DNA from: an uncultured Candidatus Saccharimonas sp.
GTDB lineage: Bacteria; Patescibacteriota; Saccharimonadia; Saccharimonadales; AWTP1-31
Length of the DNA: 39,227 nucleotides
Direction of reading: 5' to 3'
Assembly: GCA_943354005.1 (NCBI GenBank)
Contig: CALRBE010000008.1
Span: forward strand, 1 to 39,227
The translations under genes were made by a program, and so were the position numbers. Positions 12,814 to 28,368 of this stretch are shown here, piece by piece. The notes beneath the pieces were generated by a model. That model was not told the origin of the DNA, did not search any database, and saw nothing but the letters and a program-made list of their open reading frames with translations. Each line of letters opens with the position of its first letter. The first letter of the stretch is position 1.

Positions 12814-13542
12814 ATGTTCATGCGTCGACGATACTCTTTAAGAATGAACTGCTTTTCACCTCCTGTAATGCTGGCGACTGCAATCATTGAAATTAGCTTA
12901 CTAGTATATACCTTATATAAGTATGGTACGAAAAGCATAGGACGACTCGTTGCTTTAATGCTTCTATTACTGGCTATATTTCAAATTGCAGAATATAACA
13001 TTTGCGGCGGATTAGGATTAAACTCTCAATTTTGGTCACGTATAGGATTCATGGTGATTGCCTTACTGCCTCCACTCGGAATACATTTGAGCATGATGAT
13101 AGCAAAGAAGGACATAAAGTGGTTTAGATACACGGCATACCTTAGTGGTCTTATTTGGGTAGCAATATTCGGCTTAAGCGACAGAGCCTTTAGTGGATAT
13201 TCATGTGGCGGTAATTACATGATATTCCAGGTTGGAGAAAACTTTGGGAACGCCTATATGATCTACTACTACTTTTGGTTATTTGCAGCCATAGGGTTAT
13301 CTATATGGTTCATGATTAGAGCAACTAAAAGTCAGATGAAGAGCTTACTCCTGCTGATCATTGGATATCTCTTATTTATAGTACCTACATCTTTAGTAAA
13401 CGGCATTAATCCAACGACCATAGAAGGACTACCTTCTATCTTATGCGGCTTCGCAGTATTTTATGCTCTTGTTATAACATTTGGAATACTTCCCAATGAA
13501 CTTAAGTCTAAAAAACGTACAAAAAAGAAATTGACAAAGTAA
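12814..13542 (+). CDS. 7TM membrane protein (HisKA_7TM-like, stand-alone); start may be 12844
   Basis: About seven hydrophobic helices, no kinase domain. Confidence 0.6.
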   Translation: MFMRRRYSLRMNCFSPPVMLATAIIEISLLVYTLYKYGTKSIGRLVALMLLLLAIFQIAEYNICGGLGLNSQFWSRIGFMVIALLPPLGIHLSMMIAKKDIKWFRYTAYLSGLIWVAIFGLSDRAFSGYSCGGNYMIFQVGENFGNAYMIYYYFWLFAAIGLSIWFMIRATKSQMKSLLLLIIGYLLFIVPTSLVNGINPTTIEGLPSILCGFAVFYALVITFGILPNELKSKKRTKKKLTK

Positions 13543-13558
13543 TTAAACCGCTTATGAT
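13531..13558 (+). promoter_or_regulatory. sigma70 promoter of candidate sRNA 1
   Basis: TTGACA-16 bp-TATGAT; no + strand ORF follows. Confidence 0.7.
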
Positions 13559-13564
13559 AGAAGT

Positions 13565-13680
13565 ATCTCGTGCGCACCGCGGCGCGTTCCTTCAAAAACA
13601 AAAACACATGTGATTATCACCCGCCGCAGGGTGGGCGCGCACGAAAAAAATAAAATCCCGATTCGCTCGGGATTTTTGTT
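13565..13680 (+). ncRNA. Candidate structured small RNA 1 (family unknown)
   Basis: GC-rich island; tcgtgcgc(13568-75) pairs with gcgcacga(13637-44); inner hairpin caccc/gggtg; A-rich loop; own promoter and terminator. Confidence 0.65.
13652..13680. terminator. Bidirectional intrinsic terminator
   Basis: aaaatcccga-ttcgc-tcgggatttt between convergent transcription units. Confidence 0.85.
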
Positions 13681-13715
13681 ATTTCTTCCTACTTGGGGCA
13701 ACTAAGAAACTATTA

Positions 13716-14204
13716 CTAATCTTGAATTATGACTTTCTCGTTTTCGTTATTGGGCTCTTCAAAAATAGCTATTCTTTTATCCAGAATATCAGGAGTAATT
13801 ATAAAATTATTTCCTTTTTCAATATCTGCTCGACGGTTTAATCTCTCCAACAGCAAAGCTCTACTGGCCTTAAGGTATATTAATTGCATTTCAGCACCAT
13901 TACTTTCAACGAGATCTCTAAAATACTCCCGATCCCTCTTTTTCCGTACGCCGAAATCAAGTACGACCGATTGACCATTTCTTATATTCTCAACGATTTT
14001 CGATTTTATTATTTCCATAACGTTTGATTTATATTCATTACGTTTCTCAGTAGGGTAGTCAATACCAGCTACTCCATATCGTTTGATCATCTCATCGTCA
14101 ATCGAGAGAGATAGTGCTCCTTGTTCATCTACAATTTTTTTTGCATACGTTGTTTTCCCTGAACCGGGTAGTCCGCACAATAAATAAACGATCGCATGTT
14201 TCAT
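13716..14204 (-). CDS. AAA_33-type P-loop kinase-like protein
   Basis: LLCGLPGSGKTT Walker A, SIDD, SVVLD. Confidence 0.85.
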   Translation of the reverse strand: MKHAIVYLLCGLPGSGKTTYAKKIVDEQGALSLSIDDEMIKRYGVAGIDYPTEKRNEYKSNVMEIIKSKIVENIRNGQSVVLDFGVRKKRDREYFRDLVESNGAEMQLIYLKASRALLLERLNRRADIEKGNNFIITPDILDKRIAIFEEPNNENEKVIIQD

Positions 14205-14212
14205 ATGTATAT

Positions 14213-14860
14213 CTATTTTTGAATTAATGGTTTTTTACCAATGTAACGTACTAAGTTATGTATGCCCATAGCACTATCTTTATAAGTTTCACCGTTCTCA
14301 TCTGCGACAACTGTATTAAATCTTTGCGTAAATTCATTAACTGTAGTTTTACTAAAAAAGCGTTTCGTTGATTTGCCAATTTTGAAATAGTCTTTCTCAA
14401 TCATCTCGCCAGTTTTGTATTCAGGGTCATTCACTGAGTTTGCTAGAAGTGCAAGTGTACCGCCAGGTTTAAGGATCCGGTAGATTTCATTAAAAATATT
14501 AGCGGTAGTCTCATGATCAAAATAATGCAGTGAAAGATGTGAGTAAACTACATCAAAAGAATCAGCCTGAAAGGGCAGCTTTTTTCTTAGATCAACCTTT
14601 TTAATTTTAATGTCGACTGAGTTTGATGTTGCTTTTTCCTTTGCTAGTTCCAAAGCGCTATCTTCAATGTCTGTAGCAGTAACGTTATAGTCACGTTCTG
14701 CAAAATAGCAGCTGTCTTGCGCTTGACCTGCGCCTAAATCTAAAACCATTCCTTTTGCAGGAAAATAATCTAAAGCTTGTTCTGCAAAAATCGATGCTTT
14801 ATTAATCCACTCCTGATTTTTGTATGTGCTATGTAGATCTGACCAAACGCTTTCACTCAT
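14213..14860 (-). CDS. Class I SAM-dependent methyltransferase
   Basis: VLDLGAGQA, LPFQADSFDVVYS, RILKPGG. Confidence 0.9.
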   Translation of the reverse strand: MSESVWSDLHSTYKNQEWINKASIFAEQALDYFPAKGMVLDLGAGQAQDSCYFAERDYNVTATDIEDSALELAKEKATSNSVDIKIKKVDLRKKLPFQADSFDVVYSHLSLHYFDHETTANIFNEIYRILKPGGTLALLANSVNDPEYKTGEMIEKDYFKIGKSTKRFFSKTTVNEFTQRFNTVVADENGETYKDSAMGIHNLVRYIGKKPLIQK

Positions 14861-14935
14861 AATATTCAGTATATAGCCATTTATTAATTTAATCGAAAGT
14901 TATAGAATTTTTTGTACGCTAACAATATTATTTCT

Positions 14936-15012
14936 TGGTGGAGCCACGGGGACTCAAACCCCGGACCTCTTCGCTGCCAGCGAAGCGCTCTAATCAACTG
15001 AGCTACGGCCCC
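14936..15012 (-). tRNA. tRNA-Ala(GGC)
   Basis: Reverse complement ggggccgtagctcagttgattagagcgcttcgctGGCagcgaag...ggctccacca; G3:U70 pair present. Confidence 0.95.
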
Positions 15013-15092
15013 ACGTAGTAGTAGATAGTATAACAAAGTTTATTATTTGTAATAACCGTGAGCGTCGCACAGATTTAGGGTACAATAGAGTC

Positions 15093-16028
15093 ATGGCTAA
15101 AAAATCAACTACCAAATCACAAGAAAATGTAACTTTAACAGATACAACCCCATTTATTATTAAGCATAAAACAGCAACAACAATTATTGGAGCAGTGCTC
15201 TTAGTTATTATCTCCTCAACAATTTGGATCAGACAGGTCTATTATAGTCCTGAGCTAGTGTTTAATGCGATGATTGAGAATAACTTGTCCACTAACGGAG
15301 TAACTCGCACGCGTATTACTGAACAAGAAGGTGCAAAAAGGGAAGACATCGAGCAAGTTAGTTTTGTCCCTGAAGCAGCTGTCCGCACGCTTCAGACTAT
15401 TAATCAAAAAACTGAAAATGGTAAAAACACAATCGTTACTGAGAGTATAGGTACTCGAGATAATGACTATAGCCAATTTATTAAAATCGATGTTACTGAA
15501 AAAGACGAATCTGGAAAGAAACTTAACTACGCAACTGTAGAGCGACAGTGGGGCAAGTCTGATGCCAAAGAACAACCAGCTCAGATTTTCCGCGGTACTA
15601 CATTGAGCCCAATACCATTTGCAAATCTTGATCAGTCAGCACGTAAAAAAATTATAGCTCTCATGAAGGAAAGCAAGGCATACGATGTCCAATACGCAGG
15701 AGTCAAGAGCGTCAAGATTAAAGGTGAAGATGCACTAGCGTTTCCTGTTAAGATAAATAGCGAAAAATATGTAGGAGTACTAAAAGAGATTGCTAAGTAT
15801 ATAGGAATTAAGAATACTGATGACTTGAATCCTGCAGATTTTAAAGACCAACCTCCAATTGAGGTTACGATTACAGTTGGCAAGCTTTCACGACAAATCT
15901 TAGAAGTTACTTATACAGCTGGCCAGAAAGAAACTTACAGTTCATATGGACTTAGTGAGCCTATTAAATTGCCGAAAACAACAATTTCATTGAACGCTTT
16001 GCTACAAAAGGCTGAAGAGATAAGATAG
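15093..16028 (+). CDS. Membrane-anchored exported hypothetical protein
   Basis: Single N-terminal TM helix, then a hydrophilic beta-rich domain. Confidence 0.7.
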   Translation: MAKKSTTKSQENVTLTDTTPFIIKHKTATTIIGAVLLVIISSTIWIRQVYYSPELVFNAMIENNLSTNGVTRTRITEQEGAKREDIEQVSFVPEAAVRTLQTINQKTENGKNTIVTESIGTRDNDYSQFIKIDVTEKDESGKKLNYATVERQWGKSDAKEQPAQIFRGTTLSPIPFANLDQSARKKIIALMKESKAYDVQYAGVKSVKIKGEDALAFPVKINSEKYVGVLKEIAKYIGIKNTDDLNPADFKDQPPIEVTITVGKLSRQILEVTYTAGQKETYSSYGLSEPIKLPKTTISLNALLQKAEEIR

Positions 16029-16035
16029 TCACGCC

Positions 16036-16782
16036 ATGCAAGTTGTCGTAGATTCATTGCTAACTAATTACTACCGTACAGGTACAGGCAAAACAGTTGT
16101 GGTTCTACATGGCTGGGGAGACAATATTGCAGGCATTGCACCATTTCTAAAAAGCCTTAGCGCGCATTATGACGTTGTGGCTATGGATGTTCCAGGCTTT
16201 GGTGGAACTCAGGCTCCAGAAACTAGTTGGGGCTTAGACGAGTACGCCCAGTTCGTACAAAGCTTTATTACGAAATTAAACATAAAACCTAATGTGATCA
16301 TTGGCCATTCAAATGGCGGTGCTATTGCTATACGAGCAATAGCTCATGGTCTTAAGACTGAAAAGCTAGTTCTGCTAGCTTCAGCCGGGGTTCGCGGTGA
16401 TAATAAGAAAACTATTGGTGCCGTTAGGGTTATTTCAAAAGTAGGTAAGATTCTTGCTAAACCTTTACCTAAAAAAACTCAAAGAAAACTCCGAGAATCT
16501 GTATACTCAACTATTGGATCAGATATGCTCGTGGCAGAACACATGCAAGAAACATTTAAACGTATTGTCGCAGATGACGTAAGAGAAGATGCGAAGAATA
16601 TAACTCAACCTACACTACTTATCTATGGGCAGAATGATGTCTCGACGCCAGTAAACATAGGAATGGCTCTTCAAGCTGCAATTCCTAATTCAAAAATCGA
16701 AATAATTCCTGATGTTGGTCATATGCTTCCGACAGATGCAACTAGCGTGGTGCTTGGTATGGTTACGGAGTTTATTAAATGA
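16036..16782 (+). CDS. Alpha/beta fold hydrolase
   Basis: LHGWG, DVPGFG, GHSNGG nucleophile elbow, GQND, GH. Confidence 0.9.
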   Translation: MQVVVDSLLTNYYRTGTGKTVVVLHGWGDNIAGIAPFLKSLSAHYDVVAMDVPGFGGTQAPETSWGLDEYAQFVQSFITKLNIKPNVIIGHSNGGAIAIRAIAHGLKTEKLVLLASAGVRGDNKKTIGAVRVISKVGKILAKPLPKKTQRKLRESVYSTIGSDMLVAEHMQETFKRIVADDVREDAKNITQPTLLIYGQNDVSTPVNIGMALQAAIPNSKIEIIPDVGHMLPTDATSVVLGMVTEFIK

Positions 16783-18218
16783 TTAAAAGAATAGTTAGCT
16801 TCTTTGGACCGTCTTATCCTAAAACATTAACCTATATGCTACAGAGTACTGAATATGAGGTAGGACCATACCTTGCTTGGTACTGGAGAACTAATAACTT
16901 TGGGGAAGTTGCACATAGAAGAACATTAGCTAAGACCCTCAGAGCTAAATTATTATCAGCCGGTCTTAGTATCGGCATGCTAATACAAATAGTGATAGCG
17001 ATTATTATTCTTATCCAAGGAATTAAATTGCAGCGCGGTAGTGACATTTACTTCGGTATTGCACTATTACTATCTTACCCAGTTGTTTGGGCACATATTA
17101 TTGTCATTCCTCTTACGATAGCTCGAATATTTATTGTTAAACCTAAAGAGCGTCATGCAGTTAAAGCGTCAGCCAAAGTTTTTGAGCAGCACGAAGCAGT
17201 TAAGATAGCGGTTGCTGGTAGTTACGGAAAGACTACTATGAAAGAGCTTTTACTTACTGTTCTTAGTGAAGGCAAGAATGTTGCAGCAACGCCCGCAAAT
17301 AAAAATGTTGCCATCTCTCATGCTCACTTCGCTAAGAAACTGTCAGGATCAGAAGACATTGTCATTATTGAATATGGTGAGGGCGCTCCGGGTGACGTTG
17401 CACGTTTTGCAAAAACCACAAAGCCAACTATCGGCATAATAACTGGGCTTGCACCAGCTCATCTAGATAAATATAAGACACTTGATTCAGCTGCCAAAGA
17501 TATACTATCTCTTGCCGATTATCTTCAGGATAAGAATGTTTATATCAATAGCGAATCAGAACCTTTAAAGAAATACAAAAAATCACAATTTCATTCATAC
17601 TCACAGCAGTCCGTCTTGGGGTGGAAAATAGATAACATTAAAATTGCTATTTCTGGCATGACTTTCGTAATGTCAAAAGACGCGGACCGTATTAGTCTTA
17701 GTACTAATTTAATAGGACGGCACTTAATCGGTTCATTAGCTCTATGTGTCGCATTAGCAAAACAATTTGGATGCAGTAATGAAGATATTATAGCTGGCGT
17801 TGCAAAGACTAGTCCGTTTGAGCATCGTATGCAACCACGCGAGATCGCTGGGGGCTATATAATCGATGACACTTACAATGGCAATCTTGAGGGCGTACGT
17901 GCCGGTTTGCAGTTATTACAGGAGCTTACTGCACGACGAAAAGTTTACGTTACTCCTGGGCTTGTTGATCAAGGTAAAGAAGCAAAGAATGTACATCAGG
18001 AAATGGGTAAACTAATTGCCAAATCAAATCCAAATAAAGTAGTCCTTATGAAAAACAGTGTAACTAGCTGGATATGCGACGGCCTTAGCAGCGCTGGATA
18101 TACAGGTGAAATCGTGATTGAAAAGCATCCCCTTGATTTCTATACAAACATTAACCAGATCATTGCAGCAGGTGACATTATGCTACTTCAAAACGACTGG
18201 ACCGATAATTACAAATAA
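16779..18218 (+). CDS. murF: UDP-N-acetylmuramoyl-tripeptide--D-Ala-D-Ala ligase with N-terminal TM helices
   Basis: AGSYGKTT P-loop, EHRMQ, IIDDTYNGN; adjacent to ddl. Confidence 0.8.
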   Translation: MIKRIVSFFGPSYPKTLTYMLQSTEYEVGPYLAWYWRTNNFGEVAHRRTLAKTLRAKLLSAGLSIGMLIQIVIAIIILIQGIKLQRGSDIYFGIALLLSYPVVWAHIIVIPLTIARIFIVKPKERHAVKASAKVFEQHEAVKIAVAGSYGKTTMKELLLTVLSEGKNVAATPANKNVAISHAHFAKKLSGSEDIVIIEYGEGAPGDVARFAKTTKPTIGIITGLAPAHLDKYKTLDSAAKDILSLADYLQDKNVYINSESEPLKKYKKSQFHSYSQQSVLGWKIDNIKIAISGMTFVMSKDADRISLSTNLIGRHLIGSLALCVALAKQFGCSNEDIIAGVAKTSPFEHRMQPREIAGGYIIDDTYNGNLEGVRAGLQLLQELTARRKVYVTPGLVDQGKEAKNVHQEMGKLIAKSNPNKVVLMKNSVTSWICDGLSSAGYTGEIVIEKHPLDFYTNINQIIAAGDIMLLQNDWTDNYK

Positions 18219-18271
18219 AGCTAATTAATTGTAATTTGTAATTGTATTTTGAGACTATTACAATGGATAGT

Positions 18272-19441
18272 ATGAAAACAATTGCAGTAATTTTTGGTGG
18301 AAGAACAACTGAACACGACGTTTCGATCGTTACAGCTATTGCAAGTATCATTAAACCTCTTGAAGTGCAGGGTGGATATCAGATTGAGCCAGTATATATC
18401 GCAAAGGACGGGTCATGGTACTGGGATTCAAAGCTTAAAGATATAGCAACCTTTCAATCGGGTGAGATCGAAGATTTCATGCGCAAGGCACCAAAAGTAC
18501 AGTTGTCTATAGATAATGGTCTAACACTAATTAAAAGTAGCCAGTTTGCAGGCCGAAAACAATACAAGAAGATTGATGTAGTTTTTCCTGCTATGCATGG
18601 TACGCATGGCGAGGACGGAGAACTAATGGGGCTTCTTGAAATGGCTAATGTGCCATACATTGGCTGTGGAGTTGCTGCCAGTGCAATAGCAATGGATAAG
18701 GTTCTAGCCAAACAAGTTACAACTAGTGCTGGAATTGCCAGTACTCCATGGGTTTGGTTCAACGCTATAGATTTAGAGAGAGACCTTAAAGGAACACTTG
18801 CTACAATTGCAACGCTTCAGTATCCGTTATTCGTGAAGCCAGCACACCTAGGCTCTAGTATTGGCATTACAAAAGTTGATTCTAAAGATCAGCTTATGAA
18901 TGCACTTGAAGTAGCAATCCATTATGACAATCGAGTAATTGTAGAACAAGCAGTTAATAACCTCGTTGAAGTAACGCTGCCAATAATTGGTAATGATGAT
19001 CCAATTCCTGCAATGCTAGAACAGCCGCTCTTAAAAAGTGAAGATTTTTTTGATTTTGAAACTAAGTATATGCAAGGTGGCAAGAAAGGCGGCAAGAAGG
19101 GCGGATCTTCAAAGCAGGGTGCTCAAGGGTATAGCCAAATCCCAGCCGACCTTCCTAAAGATGTCTACGATGATGCGATTAAGACGGGACTTGAAGTCTA
19201 CCGCGTAACTGGATGTGCCGGTATCGCACGTGTTGATATGCTTATCGATATCAAAACAAAGAAGGTTATGTTCAATGAAATAAATCCTATGCCGGGAGGA
19301 CTATACAGTCATAACTGGAACAAGGCTGGAATGAGTAATGTCGACCTTGTCGATAAACTCGTACAGCTCGCCGAAGAAAGATGGCAAAAGTCACAAAAGA
19401 TTACCACGGCATTTAGTACAAGCTACTTGAAACAGTTCTAA
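18272..19441 (+). CDS. ddl: D-alanine--D-alanine ligase
   Basis: FGGRTTEHDVS, HGTHGEDG, KPAHLGSSIGI, ARVD, NEINPMPG; ATG 18272 is the likely start. Confidence 0.95.
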   Translation: MKTIAVIFGGRTTEHDVSIVTAIASIIKPLEVQGGYQIEPVYIAKDGSWYWDSKLKDIATFQSGEIEDFMRKAPKVQLSIDNGLTLIKSSQFAGRKQYKKIDVVFPAMHGTHGEDGELMGLLEMANVPYIGCGVAASAIAMDKVLAKQVTTSAGIASTPWVWFNAIDLERDLKGTLATIATLQYPLFVKPAHLGSSIGITKVDSKDQLMNALEVAIHYDNRVIVEQAVNNLVEVTLPIIGNDDPIPAMLEQPLLKSEDFFDFETKYMQGGKKGGKKGGSSKQGAQGYSQIPADLPKDVYDDAIKTGLEVYRVTGCAGIARVDMLIDIKTKKVMFNEINPMPGGLYSHNWNKAGMSNVDLVDKLVQLAEERWQKSQKITTAFSTSYLKQF

Positions 19442-20176
19442 ATGGGTAAAAGTACATCTAATAAACAATTGCTTCCTTCTTTAGCCAGCCCCTCTAAAAC
19501 AGAATATGCCGAAATGGAGATAGCACTGCAAAGAGAGCGGGAATGGTATAAAGACAGTCCACGCTATTTGGTTAAAAAGGACATAAAACGCGCAATTCGA
19601 AATAATGAGTTAGTCCAGCTGAGCGAATCAGAGGATCTTAAACCTATTGCTCGTTTCAATACATCAATTGAAGGCTTCACGCCTTACCTTACGCCAAATG
19701 CACTAAGGGTAGCTAAGGCCTTTGGTAACCTATGGCGTTTCATGATGAAGGAACAATTTGGTATTAACCACCCAGCGCTCAAACTAGCCGTTACATCCAT
19801 GGTACGTACTCAAAAGTATCAGGATAAACTAGTCGGCAGCGGACGATTCGCTTCTCCTGATAGTATTCACTGTACTGGTAACGCCTTTGATATTGATGTC
19901 AGTGGTTATTATTCGTTAGTAGATAATGACACGGCTATTTCACACGTTGATCCACGAAGAAAGGCTGCGGGTCAACGCATTGGTGGTCTCATAGCCCAAT
20001 CACTCGGAGAAACGTTTAACGCAGAATCACATAGTGGCGCATACGATAAAAGAGTTACTGAGTCTGCTCTTTGGACAGCCGAAGTCTTGTTCGAAGAGTA
20101 TGAAATCAATAGAGTCCACGAATTCAAGGACTCACCTAATGCCTGCTTGCATATAGCAGTAAATCCCGATTATTAA
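19442..20176 (+). CDS. DUF5715 / peptidase M15-like zinc protein
   Basis: VTSMVRT, SIHCTGNAFDI (SxHxxGxAxD) and C-terminal CLHI. Confidence 0.6.
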   Translation: MGKSTSNKQLLPSLASPSKTEYAEMEIALQREREWYKDSPRYLVKKDIKRAIRNNELVQLSESEDLKPIARFNTSIEGFTPYLTPNALRVAKAFGNLWRFMMKEQFGINHPALKLAVTSMVRTQKYQDKLVGSGRFASPDSIHCTGNAFDIDVSGYYSLVDNDTAISHVDPRRKAAGQRIGGLIAQSLGETFNAESHSGAYDKRVTESALWTAEVLFEEYEINRVHEFKDSPNACLHIAVNPDY

Positions 20177-20256
20177 TAAAACGTCGTAAAAGGTACTGCA
20201 GTATTAGCAAGTACACTATTGTATAATGCGAAATACAGTAGAGGGAGTTGGGTTGC

Positions 20257-21105
20257 ATGCAGTACACGATATTGGGTAGATTACAGTTTATTACAATTCT
20301 AGCTGTATTAGCATTGCCTTTTGCAGCTTTGCTCAATCAACCGGTCCATGCAGAAGTCAACTTTAGTTCCTTAGCTATAGATGACAACAAGCCAAATGCA
20401 CAACCATATGAGGGAGCAATTTTCCCAGATGTAAACAGATCGATAAACACATTGGGCGATTCATTCATAGACTCGCTTAATAGCGTACGAACAACAAGTA
20501 ACGTCGACTGTAGTCTAGAAAATTGTATTGCCCTGACATTTGATGATGGTCCCAACCAGTTATATACTCCTCAAGTTCTCGATATACTAAATCAATACCA
20601 AGCATATGGCAGTTTTTTTATCATAGGCAATAGGATCTCAGCACATCCTGAAATTGTCCGACGAACATACAGAGAAGGTCACGACATAGGTAATCACTCC
20701 TGGTCTCATCCGATGTTTGATGAGTTGTCGCCAGAACAGATTAATAATGAGTATGTAAGTACACAGGAGGCTATGGTAAGGGCAGGCGTTCCAGCTTCAA
20801 CTATGTTTAGGCCTCCCTATGGAATTCATACCGCTGCTTCGCTCTCGACTATTCCAACACCACAGATGCTATGGAATGTTGACCCACGTGACTGGAATGA
20901 AAAGTCTGTCGATTCATTAGTGCAGCATGTTCTTCAGGAGTCACATCGTGGTTCAGTTGTGGTTATGCACGACACTTCTATAGTTACTACAGAAGCTTTG
21001 AAACGTATCATACCGGAGCTTCAAAAGAACTATAAACTTGTAACTTTAAGTGATATGTTTGACCTTGAGCCTGGCGATCGTGGACTATACTACGGCTTAC
21101 AGTAG
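20257..21105 (+). CDS. Polysaccharide/peptidoglycan deacetylase (CE4, NodB homology)
   Basis: ALTFDDGP, GNHSWSH, FRPPYG, DPRDW, VMHD; N-terminal signal peptide. Confidence 0.92.
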   Translation: MQYTILGRLQFITILAVLALPFAALLNQPVHAEVNFSSLAIDDNKPNAQPYEGAIFPDVNRSINTLGDSFIDSLNSVRTTSNVDCSLENCIALTFDDGPNQLYTPQVLDILNQYQAYGSFFIIGNRISAHPEIVRRTYREGHDIGNHSWSHPMFDELSPEQINNEYVSTQEAMVRAGVPASTMFRPPYGIHTAASLSTIPTPQMLWNVDPRDWNEKSVDSLVQHVLQESHRGSVVVMHDTSIVTTEALKRIIPELQKNYKLVTLSDMFDLEPGDRGLYYGLQ

Positions 21106-21140
21106 CCTACCGCTGTAGTTTTACGGTATAATGATTGAAT

Positions 21141-23600
21141 ATGAAGCGATACAATCCTAAAGATATTGAAGTTAAATGGCAGAAAAAATGGGATGCCGAT
21201 GGCACGTACAAGGTAGATCTTGATTCCGTAAAGCCAAAATACATTGGTTTTGGAATGTTTAACTACCCGAGTGGAGCCGGTATTCATGTTGGCCACGTAC
21301 GCGCCTTTACTATTCCCGACATCATGACTCGCGCTAAGCGCCAACAGGGATTTGCATCCTATCAGCCAATCGGTTGGGACTCGTTTGGTTTGCCAGCTGA
21401 AAACTATGCTATTAAGACTGGCGTTCCTCCTCAGGAGTCTACGAAGACTGCCATAAAGAAGTATCATGAACAATATCGAGCACTTGGCTGGGCTGTTGAT
21501 TGGACTAAAGAGATCAATACAACTGACCCGGAATATTACAAATGGACTCAATGGGTATTCACTAAATTATTTGAGCACAACCTAGCGTATCAGCAAGAGA
21601 GTCCTCAGTGGTGGTGCAATCAATGCAAGACAGTGCTAGCCGATGAACAAGTTCTTGGCGGAAAATGCTGGAGACATGACTCAGAAGAAGACCCACTTGT
21701 CTCTAAGCGCAATCTCAAACAGTGGTTCTTTAGAATTACTAAATTTGCCGATGAAATGCTTGAAGCAACAGAAGATCTTGATTGGACACAATCAGTTAAG
21801 GCATCACAACAAAGTTGGATCGGACGAAGTATTGGAGCAGAAGTATCATTCGCTATTGAAGGAAATAAAAAAGAACTTAAAGTTTTCACAACCCGCCCGG
21901 ATACTCTTTACGGTGCAACATTTATCGTCCTTGCACCCGAACATCCACTCGTAGCTGACATTACAACAGAAGAATATAAAGCCGATATTACGTCCTATGC
22001 CAAATCATCTATCGTAAAATCTGAAGTAGAAAGACAGCAAGATGCCGACAAAGAAAAGACTGGTCTTTTCACGGGAGCTTATGCTATCAACCCAGTAAAT
22101 AATAAAAAGATTCCTATTTGGGTCGCAGATTATGTCTTAATGGGCTATGGCACTGGGGCTATAATGGCAGTTCCAGCTCATGACGAGCGTGACTTTGCTT
22201 TCGCTAAGAAGTTCGATCTTGATATAACTAGGGTAGTTTCTAATAACGAGCCCGATGAAGACTGCACTCACGCTGAGGGTGTACTAATAAACTCCGAAGA
22301 GTATAACGGGATGTCTTCTGCTATAGCTCGTGAACAAATTGTTAAAGACTTACAAACCAAGAAAATAGCTCACGAAAAAGTAAACTACAGAATGCGTGAT
22401 TGGCTAATTAGCCGACAAAGATACTGGGGAGCTCCGATTCCAATTATTCATTGCGAATCTTGTGGTCCAGTTGCGGTTCCTGAAAAAGACTTGCCAGTAG
22501 AGCTGCCAAAAATTGAAAACTATCGTCCTACTGGCGGCTATGTATCGGTACTGGCTGGAGTTGAAGACTGGGTAAATGTACCGTGCCCCACATGCAATAA
22601 GCCAGGTAAACGCGAAACAGACACAATGGACGGCTATGTCTGCTCAAGTTGGTATTTCCTTCGCTACGTGGATCCAACAAACAGTGAGCAAGCTTGGAGT
22701 AGCGCTCGAAGTAAGCAATGGATACCAGTAGATTTTTATAACGGTGGTGATCATGCGACAGCCCACTTGCTTTATGCACGATTCTTCATGCGCTTCTTCC
22801 ATTCAATTGGTCTTGTCGATTCCCCTGAACCATTCAAGAGGATGATTTATCACGGTAAAATTAAAGCCGGAGATGGTTCTGTATTCAGTAAGAGCAAGGG
22901 CAATGGGATCGACCCACTAGAAGTAATCGAACAGGGCTACGGAGCTGACGCTATACGACTATATGAAATGTTTGCTGCGCCAGTTGAGCTTGCTGTCCTA
23001 TGGGATGAGCAGGGAATACCGGGCGCCTATAGATTCTTAAATAGAGTCTGGAATATCACTCAAGAGTTTCTTGCCTCATCTGAAGAGCAATTGGACGACA
23101 AAATAACCGCTGACATTAGGATGATTGAACATAAGGCGATTGCTAAAGTAACTGAAGATATAGATGGCGTACTTTTTAACACAGCGATTGCTGCACTCAT
23201 GGAAGCGGTTAATGGATTATACAAGCTTAAAGGCGAGGGTAAACTTAAGAAAGACGATGTATGGCAATCTGCTATTGAAAGTATTCTAATGCTACTTGCA
23301 CCGTTTGCCCCTCATATTACTGATGAGCTTTGGTCACAGCTTGGTCATGACGACAGTATCCATATTGATCACTGGCCAACACTTAATATCGATTACGTAA
23401 CACTAGATACGGTTACTTTCGTAGTGCAGGTAAACGGTAAGCTACGTGCACAAATCCAGTTACCAAAAGACAGTGAAAAAGAAGTTGTACTTACTGCCGC
23501 TAAGGAAGATGAAAACGTTAAGGAATATACAGCTAAAGGAAACCTGGTCAAAGAAATATTTATTCCAGGCAAACTTATTAACTTAGTTGTAAAAGACTAG
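21141..23600 (+). CDS. leuS: Leucine--tRNA ligase
   Basis: YPSGAGIHVGH, GWDSFGLPAEN, FTTRPDT, ISRQRYWG, VQVNGKLR. Confidence 0.97.
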   Translation: MKRYNPKDIEVKWQKKWDADGTYKVDLDSVKPKYIGFGMFNYPSGAGIHVGHVRAFTIPDIMTRAKRQQGFASYQPIGWDSFGLPAENYAIKTGVPPQESTKTAIKKYHEQYRALGWAVDWTKEINTTDPEYYKWTQWVFTKLFEHNLAYQQESPQWWCNQCKTVLADEQVLGGKCWRHDSEEDPLVSKRNLKQWFFRITKFADEMLEATEDLDWTQSVKASQQSWIGRSIGAEVSFAIEGNKKELKVFTTRPDTLYGATFIVLAPEHPLVADITTEEYKADITSYAKSSIVKSEVERQQDADKEKTGLFTGAYAINPVNNKKIPIWVADYVLMGYGTGAIMAVPAHDERDFAFAKKFDLDITRVVSNNEPDEDCTHAEGVLINSEEYNGMSSAIAREQIVKDLQTKKIAHEKVNYRMRDWLISRQRYWGAPIPIIHCESCGPVAVPEKDLPVELPKIENYRPTGGYVSVLAGVEDWVNVPCPTCNKPGKRETDTMDGYVCSSWYFLRYVDPTNSEQAWSSARSKQWIPVDFYNGGDHATAHLLYARFFMRFFHSIGLVDSPEPFKRMIYHGKIKAGDGSVFSKSKGNGIDPLEVIEQGYGADAIRLYEMFAAPVELAVLWDEQGIPGAYRFLNRVWNITQEFLASSEEQLDDKITADIRMIEHKAIAKVTEDIDGVLFNTAIAALMEAVNGLYKLKGEGKLKKDDVWQSAIESILMLLAPFAPHITDELWSQLGHDDSIHIDHWPTLNIDYVTLDTVTFVVQVNGKLRAQIQLPKDSEKEVVLTAAKEDENVKEYTAKGNLVKEIFIPGKLINLVVKD

Positions 23601-24004
23601 CCTTCGACTGTTAACAATTCAACTCTAGCAATATTAGCTTCTCCGCAAACACTAATCCGCTCGCCGTCAATAAGTTGATACAGAGTGCGATCAAATGTAT
23701 CGCTAGCAGATGTATTGCCATTAATTAAAGGAGCAATTTGGCTCGCTAACATGTTAGGATCATCATATCTACTGAAATCATCTCGCCCAAAGGACTGACA
23801 TACCTGAGGCTCGATATGGCTCGCTGCTAATACCAATCCTCCAAAGAACAGTATTGCTCCAGCTATTGCGGTGCGACCTGCGTTTCGGTTAACTCTATTA
23901 TCTCGTGAGGGAGGCGTATCAAGTATCACGGCACCATGAAGTGCAGCACGTAATCCGCGCCCAATAGTCTCAATTGGATTTGGTTTGTTAGTAGAATTAT
24001 TCAT
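23597..24004 (-). CDS. Hypothetical single-TM protein
   Basis: 135 aa, one hydrophobic helix, overlaps the upstream ORF stop. Confidence 0.55.
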   Translation of the reverse strand: MNNSTNKPNPIETIGRGLRAALHGAVILDTPPSRDNRVNRNAGRTAIAGAILFFGGLVLAASHIEPQVCQSFGRDDFSRYDDPNMLASQIAPLINGNTSASDTFDRTLYQLIDGERISVCGEANIARVELLTVEG

Positions 24005-24467
24005 TTTTATTAAAAGTTAGACCTAGTCTATTTATATTGCCCAGAAAAGTAATGCTCCCTGCCGGTGTCTTAAGCTTGTTTGCTTCGCGTAGTGCGATTA
24101 TGCCGTTATAAGCGTAATGTAAAACGTTATTCTCGATACTATCTAGCTCATTACGGCTCAAGGAATTCAAGTTATTCGCAAACTCAATACTAGCTTCTTT
24201 GACTAGATCTCTATTTTCAAATATGTTTTTACCATCGCTATTAGATATTCTCTCCCGTAGGTCATCAATTGCAAACTGTGCACGTTCCTCTACATGAAGA
24301 TTACGCATATCAATTATTTCTGCTAGGTCGATAAAATTATCAATAACTGGTCTACCAACATCCCATGAAAATTTATTGGATAAAGCCATGCGATCAGGGG
24401 CTTCTCCAGTCGTAACGGCTGCTATTTCGTGTAACGGAATCTTATTGAATTCAGGTATTGTAATCAT
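23997..24467 (-). CDS. Hypothetical protein
   Basis: 156 aa, preceded on - strand by TTGACT-17 bp-TATAAT. Confidence 0.65.
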   Translation of the reverse strand: MITIPEFNKIPLHEIAAVTTGEAPDRMALSNKFSWDVGRPVIDNFIDLAEIIDMRNLHVEERAQFAIDDLRERISNSDGKNIFENRDLVKEASIEFANNLNSLSRNELDSIENNVLHYAYNGIIALREANKLKTPAGSITFLGNINRLGLTFNKNE

Positions 24468-24591
24468 GTTATATATTATACCAAATAAACTCTATAAAGT
24501 CAATACAAACTATGACTTGAGTATTAGTCCAAAAAGCGTTATAATTAGTTTAATATCATAAAATTAATAAGCAACAGGAGCCTGTTTTACT

Positions 24592-24741
24592 ATGGGAAAA
24601 CCAAAGAAACGAACTAGTCCCCGCCGAACCGGCACCCGCCGAAGCCACCTTGTACTAACACTTGCACGTAAAGTTAATGGCAAATCACCAGTTAACGTGT
24701 ACACAACAAAGCGTGAGAGCGCAAAACCTGCAAGTAAATAA
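24592..24741 (+). CDS. rpmF: 50S ribosomal protein L32 (not in the ORF track)
   Basis: Hand translation MGKPKKRTSPRRTGTRRSHLVLTLARKVNGKSPVNVYTTKRESAKPASK; CAGGAG SD; upstream of nusB. Confidence 0.85.
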   Translation: MGKPKKRTSPRRTGTRRSHLVLTLARKVNGKSPVNVYTTKRESAKPASK

Positions 24742-24792
24742 GCATATCTACGATATACTAATAGTAGTTACGTAGACAGGAAATTAACAAAT

Positions 24793-25266
24793 ATGGCATC
24801 AAATCGTCATCTAGGCCGAATATTGGTACTACAGACACTATACGAATATGATTTTCGTAAAGACTGTGGCGATGAAGCTTTTGATATTAACGATGTCTTA
24901 GACCGCAACATTGCTCGTTACCACGATACTGTCGACGACCAAGATTTTATAAAAAATCTAGTAATCGGTGTTACAGAGCAAGCAAGTAATCTAGATAGTA
25001 CACTGCAACCTATTGCTCCTGAGTGGCCGATTGCAGATATCGCACGTATGGATCGTATAGTCCTAAGAATGAGCCTGTATGAACTCTTGAAAAATAAAGA
25101 AGTTCCGCCCAAGGTTGTAATTAACGAAGCCGTAGAACTGTCAAAGGCTTTTGGTGGGGATAATAGCTCTAAGTTTATCAACGGAGTACTTGGAACAGCA
25201 CTTCGTAAATATGAAGACGGCTCCCTCGAAATTCCGGCAGGCCTGAATAAGAAAGAAAAAGCATAA
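24793..25266 (+). CDS. nusB: Transcription antitermination factor NusB
   Basis: DRIVLRM, PPKVVINEAVELSKAFG, KFINGVL. Confidence 0.95.
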   Translation: MASNRHLGRILVLQTLYEYDFRKDCGDEAFDINDVLDRNIARYHDTVDDQDFIKNLVIGVTEQASNLDSTLQPIAPEWPIADIARMDRIVLRMSLYELLKNKEVPPKVVINEAVELSKAFGGDNSSKFINGVLGTALRKYEDGSLEIPAGLNKKEKA

Positions 25267-25775
25267 TGAAACGACCAGCCCCATTTGAAGGCATAAAGAA
25301 ATTTGTAAATAAACGTCGACCTGCTATTAGCGAAGTTGTACGTGAGCCCACTGCTGGAGGGGTAGTTTTTCGACGCGACAAAAACAAAGAAGTTGAAATC
25401 CTTCTAATCCAAGATGCAAAAGACCGCTGGACTATACCAAAAGGCCACATTGAAGAAGGCGAGTCATCTAAGGAAACTGCCGAGCGTGAGATAATGGAAG
25501 AGACAGGATTACAGAAGATGGACGTGCTTAACTGGCTTGGAAAAATAAACTTTCGCTATCGTAGAACAAATAGTTTGGTCCTTATGACAACAGAAATTTT
25601 TCTTGTGCAAGCCCAGGGCGATACCGACGCTCTTAAGCCTGAGGAATGGATGAATGGCATCAAATGGTTCCCAGCAGTTGAAGCATTAGATAAAATTGCC
25701 TACGAAGATATTGAAAAACTTATGTTGATCGGTCTTAAGAGGATACGATCAGGAAACTTAGGGTTATCATCATGA
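25266..25775 (+). CDS. NUDIX hydrolase
   Basis: GHIEEGESSKETAEREIMEETG Nudix box. Confidence 0.92.
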   Translation: MKRPAPFEGIKKFVNKRRPAISEVVREPTAGGVVFRRDKNKEVEILLIQDAKDRWTIPKGHIEEGESSKETAEREIMEETGLQKMDVLNWLGKINFRYRRTNSLVLMTTEIFLVQAQGDTDALKPEEWMNGIKWFPAVEALDKIAYEDIEKLMLIGLKRIRSGNLGLSS

Positions 25776-26473
25776 GACAGGACCACCAGGAATACATAAC
25801 TTTTGCACGCGACGTTCTAGGAGTTAAATATAACGATATCGAGCTGTTAGTTCGAGCATTTACGCACCGATCATATGTTAATGAGCACCGTAAAACTGTT
25901 ACAGAGCATAATGAACGACTAGAATTTCTAGGTGATGCAGTACTCGAACTTGTTGTAACCAGCTTCTTATATAGCAACTTTACTGATCCAGAAGGAGTAC
26001 TTACTAACTGGAGAAGCTCTTTAGTTAGAACTGAAAGCATTAGTGCTGCTGCTTCTCGTAATGACTTTGAACCTCTACTACGACTAAGTAAAGGCGAGAA
26101 GCGCGGTACTGCTCGTGCACGTGCTCAGATACTCGCAAACTGCTACGAAGCTGTCGTTGGCTCATTGTATCTAGATCAGGGCTACGAAGCAGTCGCACGC
26201 TTTATTCACGATAGCCTTATAACGACTTTCCAAGGCATATTAGATAGCGGCTCATGGATGGATCCAAAATCTCATTTTCAGGAAGCAGCACAGAGCAAAG
26301 AAGGCTCAACTCCTGTCTATAAAGTACTCAGTGAAATAGGCCCCGACCACGATAAGATATTCACTGTCGGAGTCTTTGTTAACGGAGAATTAAAAGGTCA
26401 GGGTGTGGGTCCAAGTAAACAGGCTGGTCAGCAAAAAGCAGCCGAAGTTGCACTTCAAGGATACAAGAGTTGA
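25772..26473 (+). CDS. rnc: Ribonuclease III
   Basis: THRSY, NERLEFLGDAVL, C-terminal dsRBD. Confidence 0.97.
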   Translation: MRQDHQEYITFARDVLGVKYNDIELLVRAFTHRSYVNEHRKTVTEHNERLEFLGDAVLELVVTSFLYSNFTDPEGVLTNWRSSLVRTESISAAASRNDFEPLLRLSKGEKRGTARARAQILANCYEAVVGSLYLDQGYEAVARFIHDSLITTFQGILDSGSWMDPKSHFQEAAQSKEGSTPVYKVLSEIGPDHDKIFTVGVFVNGELKGQGVGPSKQAGQQKAAEVALQGYKS

Positions 26474-26563
26474 CAACAGGGGCGGTTACCTGTAAAATAG
26501 TCTCTAAGTCTTTATATTAATGTAAACAACTATTTTTTATAGAAAGAGAGAGTAAAGCCTTAT

Positions 26564-26977
26564 ATGCTAGCCATTCGAATGCAACGTACTGGAAGAAAAG
26601 GACATGCAACATTTCGTGTTGTTGTTCAGGATAGCCGACTAACACCAACAAGCGGACGCTTTGTTGCGCAGTTAGGTCACTATGATCCGCACACTAAAAA
26701 TGCAAAGATTGATGCAGAAAAGGCAACATTTTACCTTTCACATGGTGCACAGCCATCTCAAAGAGTTGCACGTCTTATACAAAAAGAAGGTGTTAAACTT
26801 CCCGAATGGTTCACTCTTGATGCTCCAAAAGAACGAAAAGCACGAAATCCTGAAAAACTTCGTAGCCAGCAACCAAAAGAAGAAGCTGTTGCCCCAGAAG
26901 TACCTGCTGAAGTAGAAGAGACTGTTGCTCCAGAAGTAACTGAAGCTACTCCAGCAAAAGAATCTCAAGAAGACTAA
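26564..26977 (+). CDS. rpsP: 30S ribosomal protein S16 with acidic C-terminal tail
   Basis: IRMQRTGRKGHATFRVVVQDSR, GHYDP, GAQPS; TTGACA/TAAAAT promoter starting in the rnc stop. Confidence 0.95.
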   Translation: MLAIRMQRTGRKGHATFRVVVQDSRLTPTSGRFVAQLGHYDPHTKNAKIDAEKATFYLSHGAQPSQRVARLIQKEGVKLPEWFTLDAPKERKARNPEKLRSQQPKEEAVAPEVPAEVEETVAPEVTEATPAKESQED

Positions 26978-27054
26978 AAAAATAGTACAATTAAATTTGT
27001 ATACTGCATTGTTTGCTATACTAAAGATGTTACTAAAAACAGGAGTTATACAGT

Positions 27055-27513
27055 ATGAGTAGTATCGATCAACAGTTCGTAGAATATATAGTTAAATCAT
27101 TAGTGGGTAAGCCAGACGCTGTTCAAATAGATCGCCGAATTGACGATAAGGGTGTTCTTCTTGAATTAACAGTAGACCCTGAGGATCTTGGACGAATAAT
27201 TGGTAAAAGAGGTGCCACTGCACAGAGTCTACGTACTCTTTTGCGAGCCTTAGGTACGAAAAATGAAGAACGTTATAACCTTAAAATTATTGATAATGGT
27301 CCAGAAGATTACGTTCGTCCGGAACGCACTAACGAGGCTCCAAAAGTAGAGAACGACACTGAACGTACAAATATGGACGACGATAACGAGTCTACAGAAG
27401 AAATTAGCGTTGAAGCTCAAGAACCTGAAGTTGAAGAAGATATTGCAGCTGAGAGTGATCTAGCTAAGAAAACTCGACGTGAACTTGAAGATCTAGATGA
27501 TCTCGATATCTAA
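27055..27513 (+). CDS. khpA: KH-domain RNA-binding protein (KhpA/YlqC) with acidic tail
   Basis: DLGRIIGKRGATAQSLR GxxG KH motif; located after rpsP. Confidence 0.88.
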   Translation: MSSIDQQFVEYIVKSLVGKPDAVQIDRRIDDKGVLLELTVDPEDLGRIIGKRGATAQSLRTLLRALGTKNEERYNLKIIDNGPEDYVRPERTNEAPKVENDTERTNMDDDNESTEEISVEAQEPEVEEDIAAESDLAKKTRRELEDLDDLDI

Positions 27514-27555
27514 AAAAGACTTGCATTAGCATAACCATCCATTGTAAAATAGTAG

Positions 27556-27669
27556 AAGTCTAATCAAGACGATTTAAAAAACAAAAACGAATTTAGAAAG
27601 CTCATGCGAGCCATCGAAAGATGGGAGCTTTATGTGACAGACGGAACCCCCTAGGGGTTCTTTTTGTTT
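27556..27669 (+). ncRNA. Candidate structured small RNA 2 (family unknown) or trmD-upstream leader
   Basis: TTGCAT(27521)-18 bp-TAAAAT(27545) promoter; aaagctc/gagcttt stem enclosing ccatc-GAAA-gatgg; A-rich loop; terminator. Confidence 0.6.
27644..27669 (+). terminator. Intrinsic terminator
   Basis: gaacccc-cta-ggggttc followed by tttttgttt. Confidence 0.85.
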
Positions 27670-27716
27670 AAGCCTAAACTTTCAAAAAGACTTAAAATAT
27701 TGTAAAATATACATAT

Positions 27717-28367
27717 ATGAAGATTCAAATAATTACATTGTTCCCAGATATGTTTCCAGGCGTTATCGATAAGAGTATGCTATGGAAAGCCCAAGAACAG
27801 AAGCTACTTGATATAAGCTACGTAAACTTACGAGATTTTGGCCTTGGCCCACGCAAAACCGTAGACGATACGCCATATGGTGGAGGTGACGGTATGCTCC
27901 TTAAGCCTGAGCCTCTCTTCGCTGCGGTACGTCATGCAAAAGAACAGGATCCTAATGCTAAGGTGCTGCTAATGACCGCACGTGGTGAACGCTGGAAGCA
28001 GACAACCGCTCAAGCTGCTGCTGATCTAAACAACGGCTTAATAATTATATGTGGACGATATGAAGGCTATGACGAGCGTATAACGACACTTGTCGACATG
28101 CAAGTATCTATCGGCGACTACATACTTACTGGCGGTGAAATCCCTGCAATGGTCATAACAGACAGCGTTGTACGGCTAATACCTGGAGTACTAGGCGGCG
28201 CAACAAGTACTCTGATTGAAAGTTTTAGCGATGGCCATACACTGGAATTCCCTCAATATACTCGTCCAGAAGTATTTGAAGACATGAGTGTACCCAATGT
28301 TCTACTAAGTGGAAACCATTCAGAAATCAATAAGTGGCGCGAAGAAAATAGTAGCCAAGCAAAGTAG
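27717..28367 (+). CDS. trmD: tRNA (guanine-N1)-methyltransferase
   Basis: VDDTPYGGGDGM, CGRYEGYDER, SIGDYILTGGE, PQYTRP. Confidence 0.97.
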   Translation: MKIQIITLFPDMFPGVIDKSMLWKAQEQKLLDISYVNLRDFGLGPRKTVDDTPYGGGDGMLLKPEPLFAAVRHAKEQDPNAKVLLMTARGERWKQTTAQAAADLNNGLIIICGRYEGYDERITTLVDMQVSIGDYILTGGEIPAMVITDSVVRLIPGVLGGATSTLIESFSDGHTLEFPQYTRPEVFEDMSVPNVLLSGNHSEINKWREENSSQAK

Positions 28368-28368
28368 T

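Follow-up and report, generated by a model that had tools for sequence, protein, structure and literature searches.

Two promoter-to-terminator units behind ligA and khpA

The stretch analyzed here (the window) is a contig of 39,227 nucleotides from an uncultured Candidatus Saccharimonas sp. (GenBank assembly GCA_943354005.1, contig CALRBE010000008.1, forward strand), a member of the ultra-small epibiotic bacteria with genomes of ~750 kb and a coding density of about 90%. The genome to which it belongs (G000, with the window as contig C8) comprises 752 kb in 10 contigs, has a GC content of 40% (60% A+T), and is an estimated 98.5% complete. An earlier note on this DNA had pointed out two intergenic units, 14 kb apart, that share the 12-mer AAAAACAAAAAC, and had proposed them as one family of paralogous or convergent small RNAs (sRNAs). 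We refer to the unit downstream of ligA as el1, to the unit behind khpA as el2, and to the shared word, in its general form A4-6 C A4-6 C, as the A-box. The two 12-mers are located at 13594 to 13605 and at 27577 to 27588, and each was indeed found to lie, in unpaired form, within a unit of ~113 to 116 nt composed of a promoter, a structured RNA, and a terminator. Promoters and terminators were scanned over 15.5 kb (13000 to 28500), which contained 29 promoter-like sites. Conservation by blastn was counted in 41 genomes of the window's order, G000 included, and covariance models were searched against 151 genomes of the class, namely, G000, 45 genomes of the same order, and 105 genomes of other orders, as assigned by a family table and a kinship column. 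An automatic alignment that mixed in 12 reverse-strand matches was left out of all counts.

The el1 unit spans 13568 to 13681 on the forward strand. Its promoter (13531 to 13558; TTGACA-16-TATGAT) matches the sigma70 consensus at 11/12 positions, shared the top score of the scan as one of three such sites, and predicts a transcription start at about 13565 to 13567. The core RNA (13568 to 13644; 84 bits with covariance model R1) is followed by an intrinsic terminator with a U-tract (13652 to 13681), whose 10-bp stem (13652 to 13676) scored on both strands; this bidirectional terminator also serves a convergent gene for an AAA_33/zeta-toxin-like kinase (13716 to 14204, reverse strand). The kinase gene adjoins el1 within the window's genus only. 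In the minimum-free-energy fold (z = -3.3 against shuffles, 116-nt stretch), the 5′ end pairs with the stretch that immediately precedes the terminator, as the earlier note had anticipated. Two covarying stems, P1 (13568 to 13575 with 13637 to 13644) and P2 (13579 to 13584 with 13622 to 13627), enclose an apical region (13585 to 13621) that carries the A-box, and the invariant 3′ bulge AGGGUGGGC occupies 13628 to 13636. The overall shape is that of a long GC-rich hairpin whose bulge, GGGUGGGC, is invariant and whose apical loop of 20 to 35 nt, G-poor and A-rich, displays one or two A-boxes.

Using blastn, el1 was recovered from 23/41 genomes. An alignment of 19 sequences showed a near-invariant frame, UCGUGCG(C/U)...GCGGCG...(A-rich)...CACCCGCCGCAGGGUGGGC(G/A)CGCACGA, in which P1 and P2 (with P3) were 97.9% paired and compensatory changes replaced C-G by U-A in 6/18 distinct rows and G-C by A-U in one. 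Since this alignment was too conserved to tell more, we built model R1, which detected el1 in 23 of the 45 same-order genomes besides G000 and in none of the 105 genomes of other orders. Divergent el1 copies (loci L083 to L092) have both strands of P1 and P2 swapped wholesale with the pairing kept (e.g., CGGGUGU/ACACCCG and GGCUCG/CGAGCC), and they retain the GGGUGGGC bulge together with the A-rich, G-poor loop, which usually contains two boxes, AAAACAAA(A/C)A, with a UUCC-like spacer between them. Features were counted across 41 el1 homologues with strict regular expressions, so that the following numbers are lower bounds: the (G)GGUGGGC bulge was present in all 41, at least one A3-6[C/U]A3-6 box in the core of 40, a hairpin with a T-run on the 3′ side in 34, and a sigma70-type promoter 8 to 12 nt before UCGUGCG in 31. 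Upstream and on the same strand, ligA and/or a 7TM gene was found at 33/41 loci. On the 3′ side, el1 faces a convergent gene in the window and often an opposite-strand tRNA gene elsewhere; thus, nothing lies downstream for el1 to control, and the dependent gene within the same transcription unit that a riboswitch or an attenuator would have was not found. An alternative hairpin, CACCC/GGGUG, is not a general el1 feature: its pairing reached 100% in family f1 and included one compensatory change, but several members of family f18 have the two halves directly adjacent (CCCGGG), which precludes the hairpin on steric grounds.

The gene preceding el2 is khpA (27055 to 27513, forward strand), as the earlier note had recognized; its product is a genuine KhpA (Pfam PF13083, E = 2.2e-22) of 152 amino acids (aa), with a 73-aa KH domain (residues 6 to 78) and a strongly acidic tail of ~75 aa ending in LEDLDDLDI. 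The el2 promoter (27521 to 27550; TTGCAT at 27521 to 27526, an 18-nt spacer, and TAAAAT at 27545 to 27550) was read by eye and had not been listed by the scan. Of the sigma70 promoters claimed for both units, that of el2 has a weak -35 box, which matches at just 3/6 positions. The el2 RNA (27557 to 27669, forward strand; 113 bits with model R2) begins with a 5′ hairpin (27558 to 27570), which is local, so that the pairing of the 5′ segment with the 3′ end expected for this unit, too, was not borne out. An A-rich linker containing the A-box follows (27571 to 27597), then a hairpin (27598 to 27630) with the invariant bulge (A)UGCGA(G) at 27604 to 27610, a second linker, UAUGUGA, and a terminator (27643 to 27661) that was ranked at the top of the scan, is extended by GACAGA/UUUGUU pairing, and has a U-tract reaching to 27669. 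The terminators of both units are as strong as had been supposed, and the fold of el2 reached z = -3.5 against shuffles (116-nt stretch).

Conservation of el2 was likewise evident, with blastn matches in 30/41 genomes. An alignment of 18 sequences contained the invariant core UGCGAGCC...UGGGAGCUUUAUGUGACA, RNAalifold reported compensatory changes at 8/21 pairs, up to five pair types occurred per position of the apical stem, and the terminator extension carried one compensatory change. The search with R2 gave matches in 29/45 same-order genomes and in 2/105 others. Four of these matches (L143, L146, L147, and L149; two from the same order and two from other orders) were counted as false because the core was missing and no khpA was nearby, leaving credible el2 copies in about 27/45 same-order genomes and in 0/105 genomes of other orders. 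The linkage to khpA was invariant: the gene lies directly upstream of el2 at 19/20 blast loci, the 20th of which begins at a contig edge, and at 25/29 covariance-model matches, the 4 exceptions being those without the el2 core. In relatives, the el2 promoter is found at the same place or, in many of them, within the last khpA codons (TTGAAG/TTGCAG..TATATAAT), so that it is retained even at the cost of overlapping the khpA stop codon. In the window's genus, the -10 box embedded in khpA has decayed, and a new promoter is present 25 nt downstream; this replacement suggests that an el2 promoter of its own is under selection. Two coding interpretations were discarded. Stop codons and indels that are not multiples of three interrupt a 16-codon frame (AUG at 27604) in the hairpin of related el2 copies, which rules out an encoded peptide, and an AUG-UGA "start-stop" seen after the el1 box and in the el2 linker is lost in el2 of family f18 (UUAUUUGUG) and in most el1 families.

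Both units could in principle be cis elements rather than free-standing sRNAs, with el2 serving as a trmD leader or attenuator or as the khpA 3′ untranslated region (UTR) and el1 as the ligA 3′ UTR. For el2, this is suggested by its position between khpA and trmD, by its terminal hairpin, and by the overlap of its promoter with the end of the khpA coding sequence in some relatives, which makes read-through from khpA possible; a third unit, el3 (described below), takes the position of an infC-rpmI-rplT leader. However, trmD has a -10 box of its own (TAAAAT, 27703 to 27708, forward strand; scan site at 27681 to 27708) 8 nt before its ATG (the box and start together span 27703 to 27719, with the ATG at 27717), and this arrangement, TGGTAAAAT-ATACAT-N-ATG, is kept in relatives. 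Accordingly, trmD possesses a separate promoter, and its mRNA is probably leaderless or nearly so. Moreover, khpA stays adjacent to el2 while trmD is located 0.4 to 0.8 kb further away or outside the locus in 8/19 khpA-el2 loci of the blast set, as it is in other model-hit loci. A riboswitch or attenuator acting on trmD is hard to reconcile with a gene that is self-promoted and not always adjacent. For el1, convergent genes or tRNA genes come next, and both units have kept promoters at fixed distances, all of which makes a cis-acting role quite unlikely. The usual flankers of trmD, rimM and rplS, are not found at the trmD gene of the window, where a gene for a Cu/Zn superoxide dismutase follows on the opposite strand.

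We infer from this arrangement that el1 and el2 are separately transcribed sRNA genes of about 110 to 115 nt that would be expressed in vivo. The notion of a single paralogous family did not hold: with filters off, R1 gave no match to el2 at E values of up to 5, R2 scored el1 at 10.9 bits (E = 1.3), and the conserved cores and structures differ, so that the layout and the box are what the two have in common. As far as sequence and covariation can tell, el1 and el2 are two unrelated RNA families that have no match in Rfam and are restricted to the window's order. A scan of the whole window with Rfam 15 at gathering thresholds returned 3 tRNAs only. In a permissive scan (E of up to 10), the best match at el1 was rimP (22.6 bits against a threshold of 47), which covered the terminator only, and nothing was returned at el2; the earlier statement that neither RNA is a signal recognition particle (SRP) RNA, a 6S RNA, or a known riboswitch is in line with this outcome.

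SRP RNA and 6S RNA were undetected anywhere in the 98.5%-complete G000 and would thus be "missing," which raises the question of whether el1 or el2 is a divergent version of one of them. We consider this extremely improbable. Neither RF00169 nor RF01854 had a match in G000, RF00169 was above its cut-off in 0/41 genomes, and its single weak match (in genome G026) lay elsewhere, in apparent coding sequence. In G000, neither an Ffh M domain nor a GTPase of the SRP54 type (Ffh/FtsY) was detected, and across the 41 genomes, these searches returned short partial matches of P-loop length only. A regular expression for the SRP domain IV motif yielded no intergenic candidate, and the motif is missing from el1 and el2. 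The portion of PMC8080830 consulted describes two SRP subunits as absent in many bacteria of the candidate phyla radiation (CPR). Since the partner proteins are missing too, a divergent SRP RNA is excluded rather than merely overlooked. The 6S RNA is a rod of ~180 nt with a central bubble; its model, RF00013, has 187 positions compared to the ~110 nt of el1 and el2 and had no match in G000.

Frequency and contexts of the A-box

The 12-mer AAAAACAAAAAC occurs exactly twice in the window, both times on the forward strand, whereas 0.02 copies were expected and none of 100 shuffles reached 2. In the 752 kb of G000, we counted 6 copies, 5 of which lie in the non-coding fraction (~12% of the genome, left over by a crude call of open reading frames [ORFs]), where a first-order Markov model of the non-coding DNA predicts 0.06. 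A control with the reversed pattern overlaps the motif (C+A5CA5) and is not independent; it was replaced by this Markov expectation and by a ranking of all 12-mers, in which the A-box word was the commonest in the non-coding DNA of G000 apart from words of tRNA genes. In addition, A5CA5 was found 7 times in non-coding DNA versus 2 times for A5GA5 and 4 times for A5TA5. An occurrence at background frequency, which the earlier note had named as a possible objection, is not what these counts show. All 5 non-coding copies are in sense orientation: one each in el1, el2, and el3 and two in the mraZ-rsmH spacer, the second of them 7 nt before the rsmH ATG. Within the order, 40/41 genomes contain the 12-mer, with 1 to 10 copies each.

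The el3 unit (G000 contig C7, 30885 to 31105, reverse strand; loci L003 and L048 to L067) is a third promoter-to-terminator unit, which sits upstream of infC-rpmI-rplT, with a second promoter, that of infC, on its 3′ side. Its parts are a 5′ hairpin, the 12-mer, a further hairpin that is invariant (AACAACGGCUUCUCGCAAGCCGUUGUU), a long G-poor tail rich in A and C, and a terminator. Matches to el3 were obtained in 35/41 genomes of the order; the AACAACGGCUUCUCGCAAGCCGUUGUU hairpin was present in 20/20 fetched homologues, and the exact 12-mer directly after the 5′ hairpin was present in 18/20. An Rfam scan of el3 (E of up to 10) returned no family, L20_leader included.

A further recurrent location is the division/cell-wall (dcw) cluster (in G000, contig C1, 50033 to 50366, reverse strand, locus L119; relatives, L156 to L166). 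In 11 dcw loci, a set that had been picked for paired motifs and is biased in this respect, the box is found in the mraZ 5′ UTR, twice between mraZ and rsmH, and 8 to 12 nt before an ftsL-like ATG. These boxes are typically located just 3′ of a stable hairpin and are not accompanied by a Shine-Dalgarno sequence, an arrangement kept in many genera. For an unselected view, 30 copies (the first 3 matches per genome, from 10 genomes) were classified by reading the printed flanks. About 16 were non-coding and 14 lay in ORFs (8 sense and 6 antisense). The non-coding copies were located 4 to 11 nt before an ATG without a Shine-Dalgarno sequence (5 copies), in the mraZ/rsmH region (4), in el3 (2), just after promoters (2), in an el1 of genome G014 that blastn had overlooked (1), and before a terminator (1); 1 copy was left unclassified. 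The supposition that the 12-mer is private to the two RNAs of the window therefore had to be given up, as it also occurs in el3 and in 5′ UTRs: throughout the lineage, the A-box is a trait of transcribed RNA that is non-coding and unpaired. The 12-mer alone is insufficient as a signal, since about half of the sampled copies are inside ORFs.

The word might be nothing but a compositional accident, i.e., an unstructured, A-rich spacer without a specific reader in a genome of high A+T content. In favor of this, A+T makes up 60% of the genome, linkers rich in A are frequent, the box is variable in el1 and missing from many el2 homologues, and the share of relatives' copies that fall into ORFs would fit as well. 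Against this stand the 5 non-coding copies where 0.06 were expected, the top rank among non-tRNA 12-mers, the preference for C over G and T between the A-runs, the conservation of the exact 12-mer in 18/20 el3 homologues across the order, and its recurrence at equivalent dcw UTR positions in many genera. An origin by composition alone thus seems very improbable to us.

Candidate readers of the A-box

The A-box could be the 3′ part of a boxA-like NusB-S10 site, in which case the units would be Nus-loaded transcripts, either leaders with terminators that are passed once Nus factors are at hand or decoys that buffer free NusB/S10. Several copies carry a 5′ extension of the form GUUC(N)UU: el1 of G000 reads GUUCCUUCAAAAAC, and el2 of other genera reads GUUCUUCAAAAAC, GUUCUUAAAAAAAC, or GUUCUUUCAAAAAC. 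Judged by eye and with no null model, the best el2 copies match the gamma-proteobacterial consensus GYTCTTTAANA (PMC5725501, in the part consulted) at 10/11 positions, and el1 (GUUCCUUCAAA) matches it at 9/11 by the same visual comparison. The rRNA leader of G000 (contig C1, 129958 to 130045, reverse strand; loci L093 to L118) carries GUUCGUUAAAAAUUG within a boxA-like 35-mer, (GUUC)GUUAAAAAUUGAAUAGUGCAAAUCAACGUCAG, which is 100% conserved in many relatives and has its complement within the 16S-tRNA spacer, with which it probably forms the processing stem. As in rRNA leaders, the A-box is usually found 3′ of a hairpin; nusB is present in the window (24793 to 25266); and the neighboring genes are related to translation (infC, rsmH, and trmD), a function to which ~25% of boxA-associated gene functions were tied according to the accessible part of PMC5725501.

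The A-box shares with boxA/nut sites the order of a hairpin, a pyrimidine run, and an A-run with one C, and it resembles the rRNA-leader box of its own lineage. However, the GUUC/U-run is missing in several copies: el2 of G000 has no GUUC part (GACGAUUUAAAAAAC), all el3 copies have GCUC followed directly by the A-run without a U-run, and el1 of other families has UUCC spacers instead. Each el unit measures ~110 nt and is closed by a strong terminator, no gene lies 3′ of el1 to be controlled, and trmD and infC have their own promoters past the terminators. Furthermore, no Rho RNA-binding domain was found in G000, which would leave anti-Rho antitermination without a target. Overall, we regard a boxA role as unlikely.

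The rRNA leader also offers a possible pairing partner. On the 3′ side of the 35-mer lies a U-rich element, UUUGUUUUUGAA, that is complementary to the A-box, and the units could be base-pairing sRNAs in which the A-box is a seed for U-rich targets, especially this conserved pre-16S leader element (UUGUUUUUGAA). Positions 27 to 38 of el1 (UUCAAAAACAAA) form a perfect 12-nt complement about 30 nt upstream of the mature 16S rRNA, and el3 and el2 are complementary to the leader over 11 and 9 nt, respectively (blastn-short E = 0.028 versus 7.5 kb). A related element (UUGUUUU(U)GAA or AUGUUUUGAAAAU) occurs in most of 24 rRNA leaders, 14 by regular expression and about 6 by eye. The duplexes are A-U rich, though, and both partners are of low complexity, so that the complementarity is likely to have arisen by chance. 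Among genomes, the leader element is variable, whereas the el3 box is invariant, and no matching covariation was seen. A genome-wide search for 11-mer complements returned scattered, mostly intragenic matches, and the same box is present in many 5′ UTRs, unlike a specific seed. We therefore rate base pairing with the leader as improbable. In a blastn-short comparison of el1, el2, and el3 with the rRNA operon, the leader complement was the only match.

The reading that we rank first is a docking site. The box is unpaired and G-poor, follows a hairpin, lies at the Shine-Dalgarno position of genes without a Shine-Dalgarno sequence, and is displayed in the loops and linkers of sRNAs that have no ORF, which suggests that it could be bound by a general reader of single-stranded RNA. 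This reader might be the 30S subunit with S1, for which the box would constitute a Shine-Dalgarno-independent loading site, or it might be the KhpA/KhpB pair. Since the sRNAs show the box without an ORF, they would compete with mRNAs for the reader as decoys or sponges; alternatively, they could be stabilized or delivered by it. We put the chance that the A-box docks such a reader (30S/S1 or KhpA/KhpB) and that el1 and el2 act as its decoys at somewhat better than even, and we infer this competitor role ahead of all other readings discussed here. The sponge function, perhaps for KhpA, that the earlier note had suggested may hold in this framework.

Proteins that could serve as readers are encoded in G000: a 4-domain S1 protein, KhpA, NusB, and an R3H protein, which we took as KhpB-like from its R3H domain alone. 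A search for Hfq (PF17209) had no match in G000 and gave control matches in 5 reference genomes. KhpA is attractive on account of its strict linkage to el2 and of the roles described for KhpA/B in sRNA binding and in elongation and division. In the part of the report that was available (10.1101/2023.10.30.564711), KhpA/B are presented as major sRNA binders in species without Hfq/ProQ/CsrA, and partial sources likewise describe them as regulators of elongation and division. With sRNAs associated with KhpA/KhpB, the present units share the tie of el2 to khpA, the presence of KhpA and an R3H protein in a genome where no Hfq was found, and the frequency of the A-box in UTRs of the division/cell-wall cluster; linkage is not binding, however, and el1 and el3 are unlinked to khpA.

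The layout as a whole resembles that of sponge systems. In CsrB/RsmZ, the GGA motif found at the ribosome-binding sites of mRNA 5′ UTRs is repeated in the loops of the sRNAs. Likewise, the A-box lies near mRNA start codons (4 to 11 nt before the ATG) and recurs unpaired in sRNAs that have no ORF and are bounded by a promoter and a terminator of their own, so that one motif is common to the loops of sRNAs and the ribosome-binding sites of mRNAs; in el1 of most families, two boxes are even present in one loop. The differences are that the motif is A5CA5C rather than GGA, that each RNA has 1 to 2 copies rather than many, and that no CsrA-like partner was identified. A-rich, Shine-Dalgarno-independent leaders and ribosome standby sites are a second known type of element, which the A-box matches in its location at the Shine-Dalgarno position, 4 to 11 nt before the ATG of genes without a Shine-Dalgarno sequence, and from which it differs in that no conserved ORF follows the box in el1, el2, or el3. 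Class II Hfq-dependent sRNAs combine an (ARN)n motif with a U-rich terminator tail. The 12-mer can be read as four A-A/R-N triplets and is accompanied by a rho-independent terminator, but this family is not applicable, as no Hfq domain was found in G000.

Several observations weigh against a docking and decoy function. The box is missing in 17/39 distinct el2 homologues, among them every one of the 10 family f18 members counted; it was present upstream of the core in the other 22/39, with the exact 12-mer in 6. In el1, its sequence varies (e.g., AAAACAAACA and AAAAUAAAAA), and about half of the relatives' sampled copies lie in ORFs on either strand. One box per RNA, as in el2 and in el1 of G000, is few for a classical sponge. 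The part of 10.64898/2026.10.12.757534 at hand reports no A-rich preference for KhpA/KhpB; for Thermus KhpB, it names a 10-mer that is C-rich. Docking or decoy action does not account for the best-conserved segments of the RNAs (GGGUGGGC, UGCGA, and UUUAUGUGACAGAC), and neither do the boxA and rRNA-leader readings; presumably, these segments make each RNA specific. Finally, the sole metatranscriptome run found (7% of words) supplied sparse, low-depth contigs of a relative across 13000 to 28500 that left 13517 to 14033 and 27476 to 27992 uncovered and is uninformative either way.

Carried further, the docking reading would describe a post-transcriptional A-box regulon peculiar to this order, in which a global reader binds A5CA5C boxes at the Shine-Dalgarno-less starts of genes for cell division and translation (mraZ, rsmH, ftsL, and infC) and is titrated by el1, el2, and el3. 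KhpA/KhpB would be the most attractive reader because the khpA gene is welded to el2. In this complete form, we hold the proposal to be a long shot; if true, it would amount to a Csr-like sponge circuit of CPR bacteria in which a KH protein reads an A-rich code. Irrespective of the reader, no fewer than two noncoding RNA genes, and probably three or four, have been kept across the whole order with their promoters, terminators, and neighbors, which points to strong selection. The consulted part of a 2022 preprint on the cultured strain TM7x (10.1101/2022.03.25.485537) speaks of "no currently validated small RNAs." The families described here may provide an entry point to translation start and RNA regulation in organisms without Hfq, Rho, and SRP and to the question of what the widespread KhpA/KhpB proteins recognize, and the covariance models and coordinates suffice to annotate el1 and el2 in other genomes.

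Outlying loci in the same genome

Three further places in G000 drew attention during the survey. A 22-mer, GTACTCAAAACCAAAAACACCT, at 21213 to 21234 of contig C7 (forward strand; L068, 7214 to 7235) is 95% identical to the box region of el3. The 420-nt spacer in which it is located, flanked by nrdR and a tRNA gene, matches no Rfam family, and the short match recurs in 6 relatives. A mimicry of 23S rRNA by el3 had been considered and was rejected, as this recurrence lies in the nrdR-tRNA spacer and not in rRNA. On contig C2 (108097 to 108286, forward strand), the spacer after an A-box-like word, AAAACAAAA, looks by eye like a riboswitch aptamer (GGAAGUCAGGUGAGAAUCCUGCACUGUGCCGCAACGGUAAGCCC...). 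Close to the 22-mer, on the reverse strand of contig C7 (21460 to 21921), ~450 nt that contain no ORF and match no Rfam family separate a strong promoter (TTGACA..TTATAA) from a tRNA gene, and this segment may represent another unannotated structured RNA.

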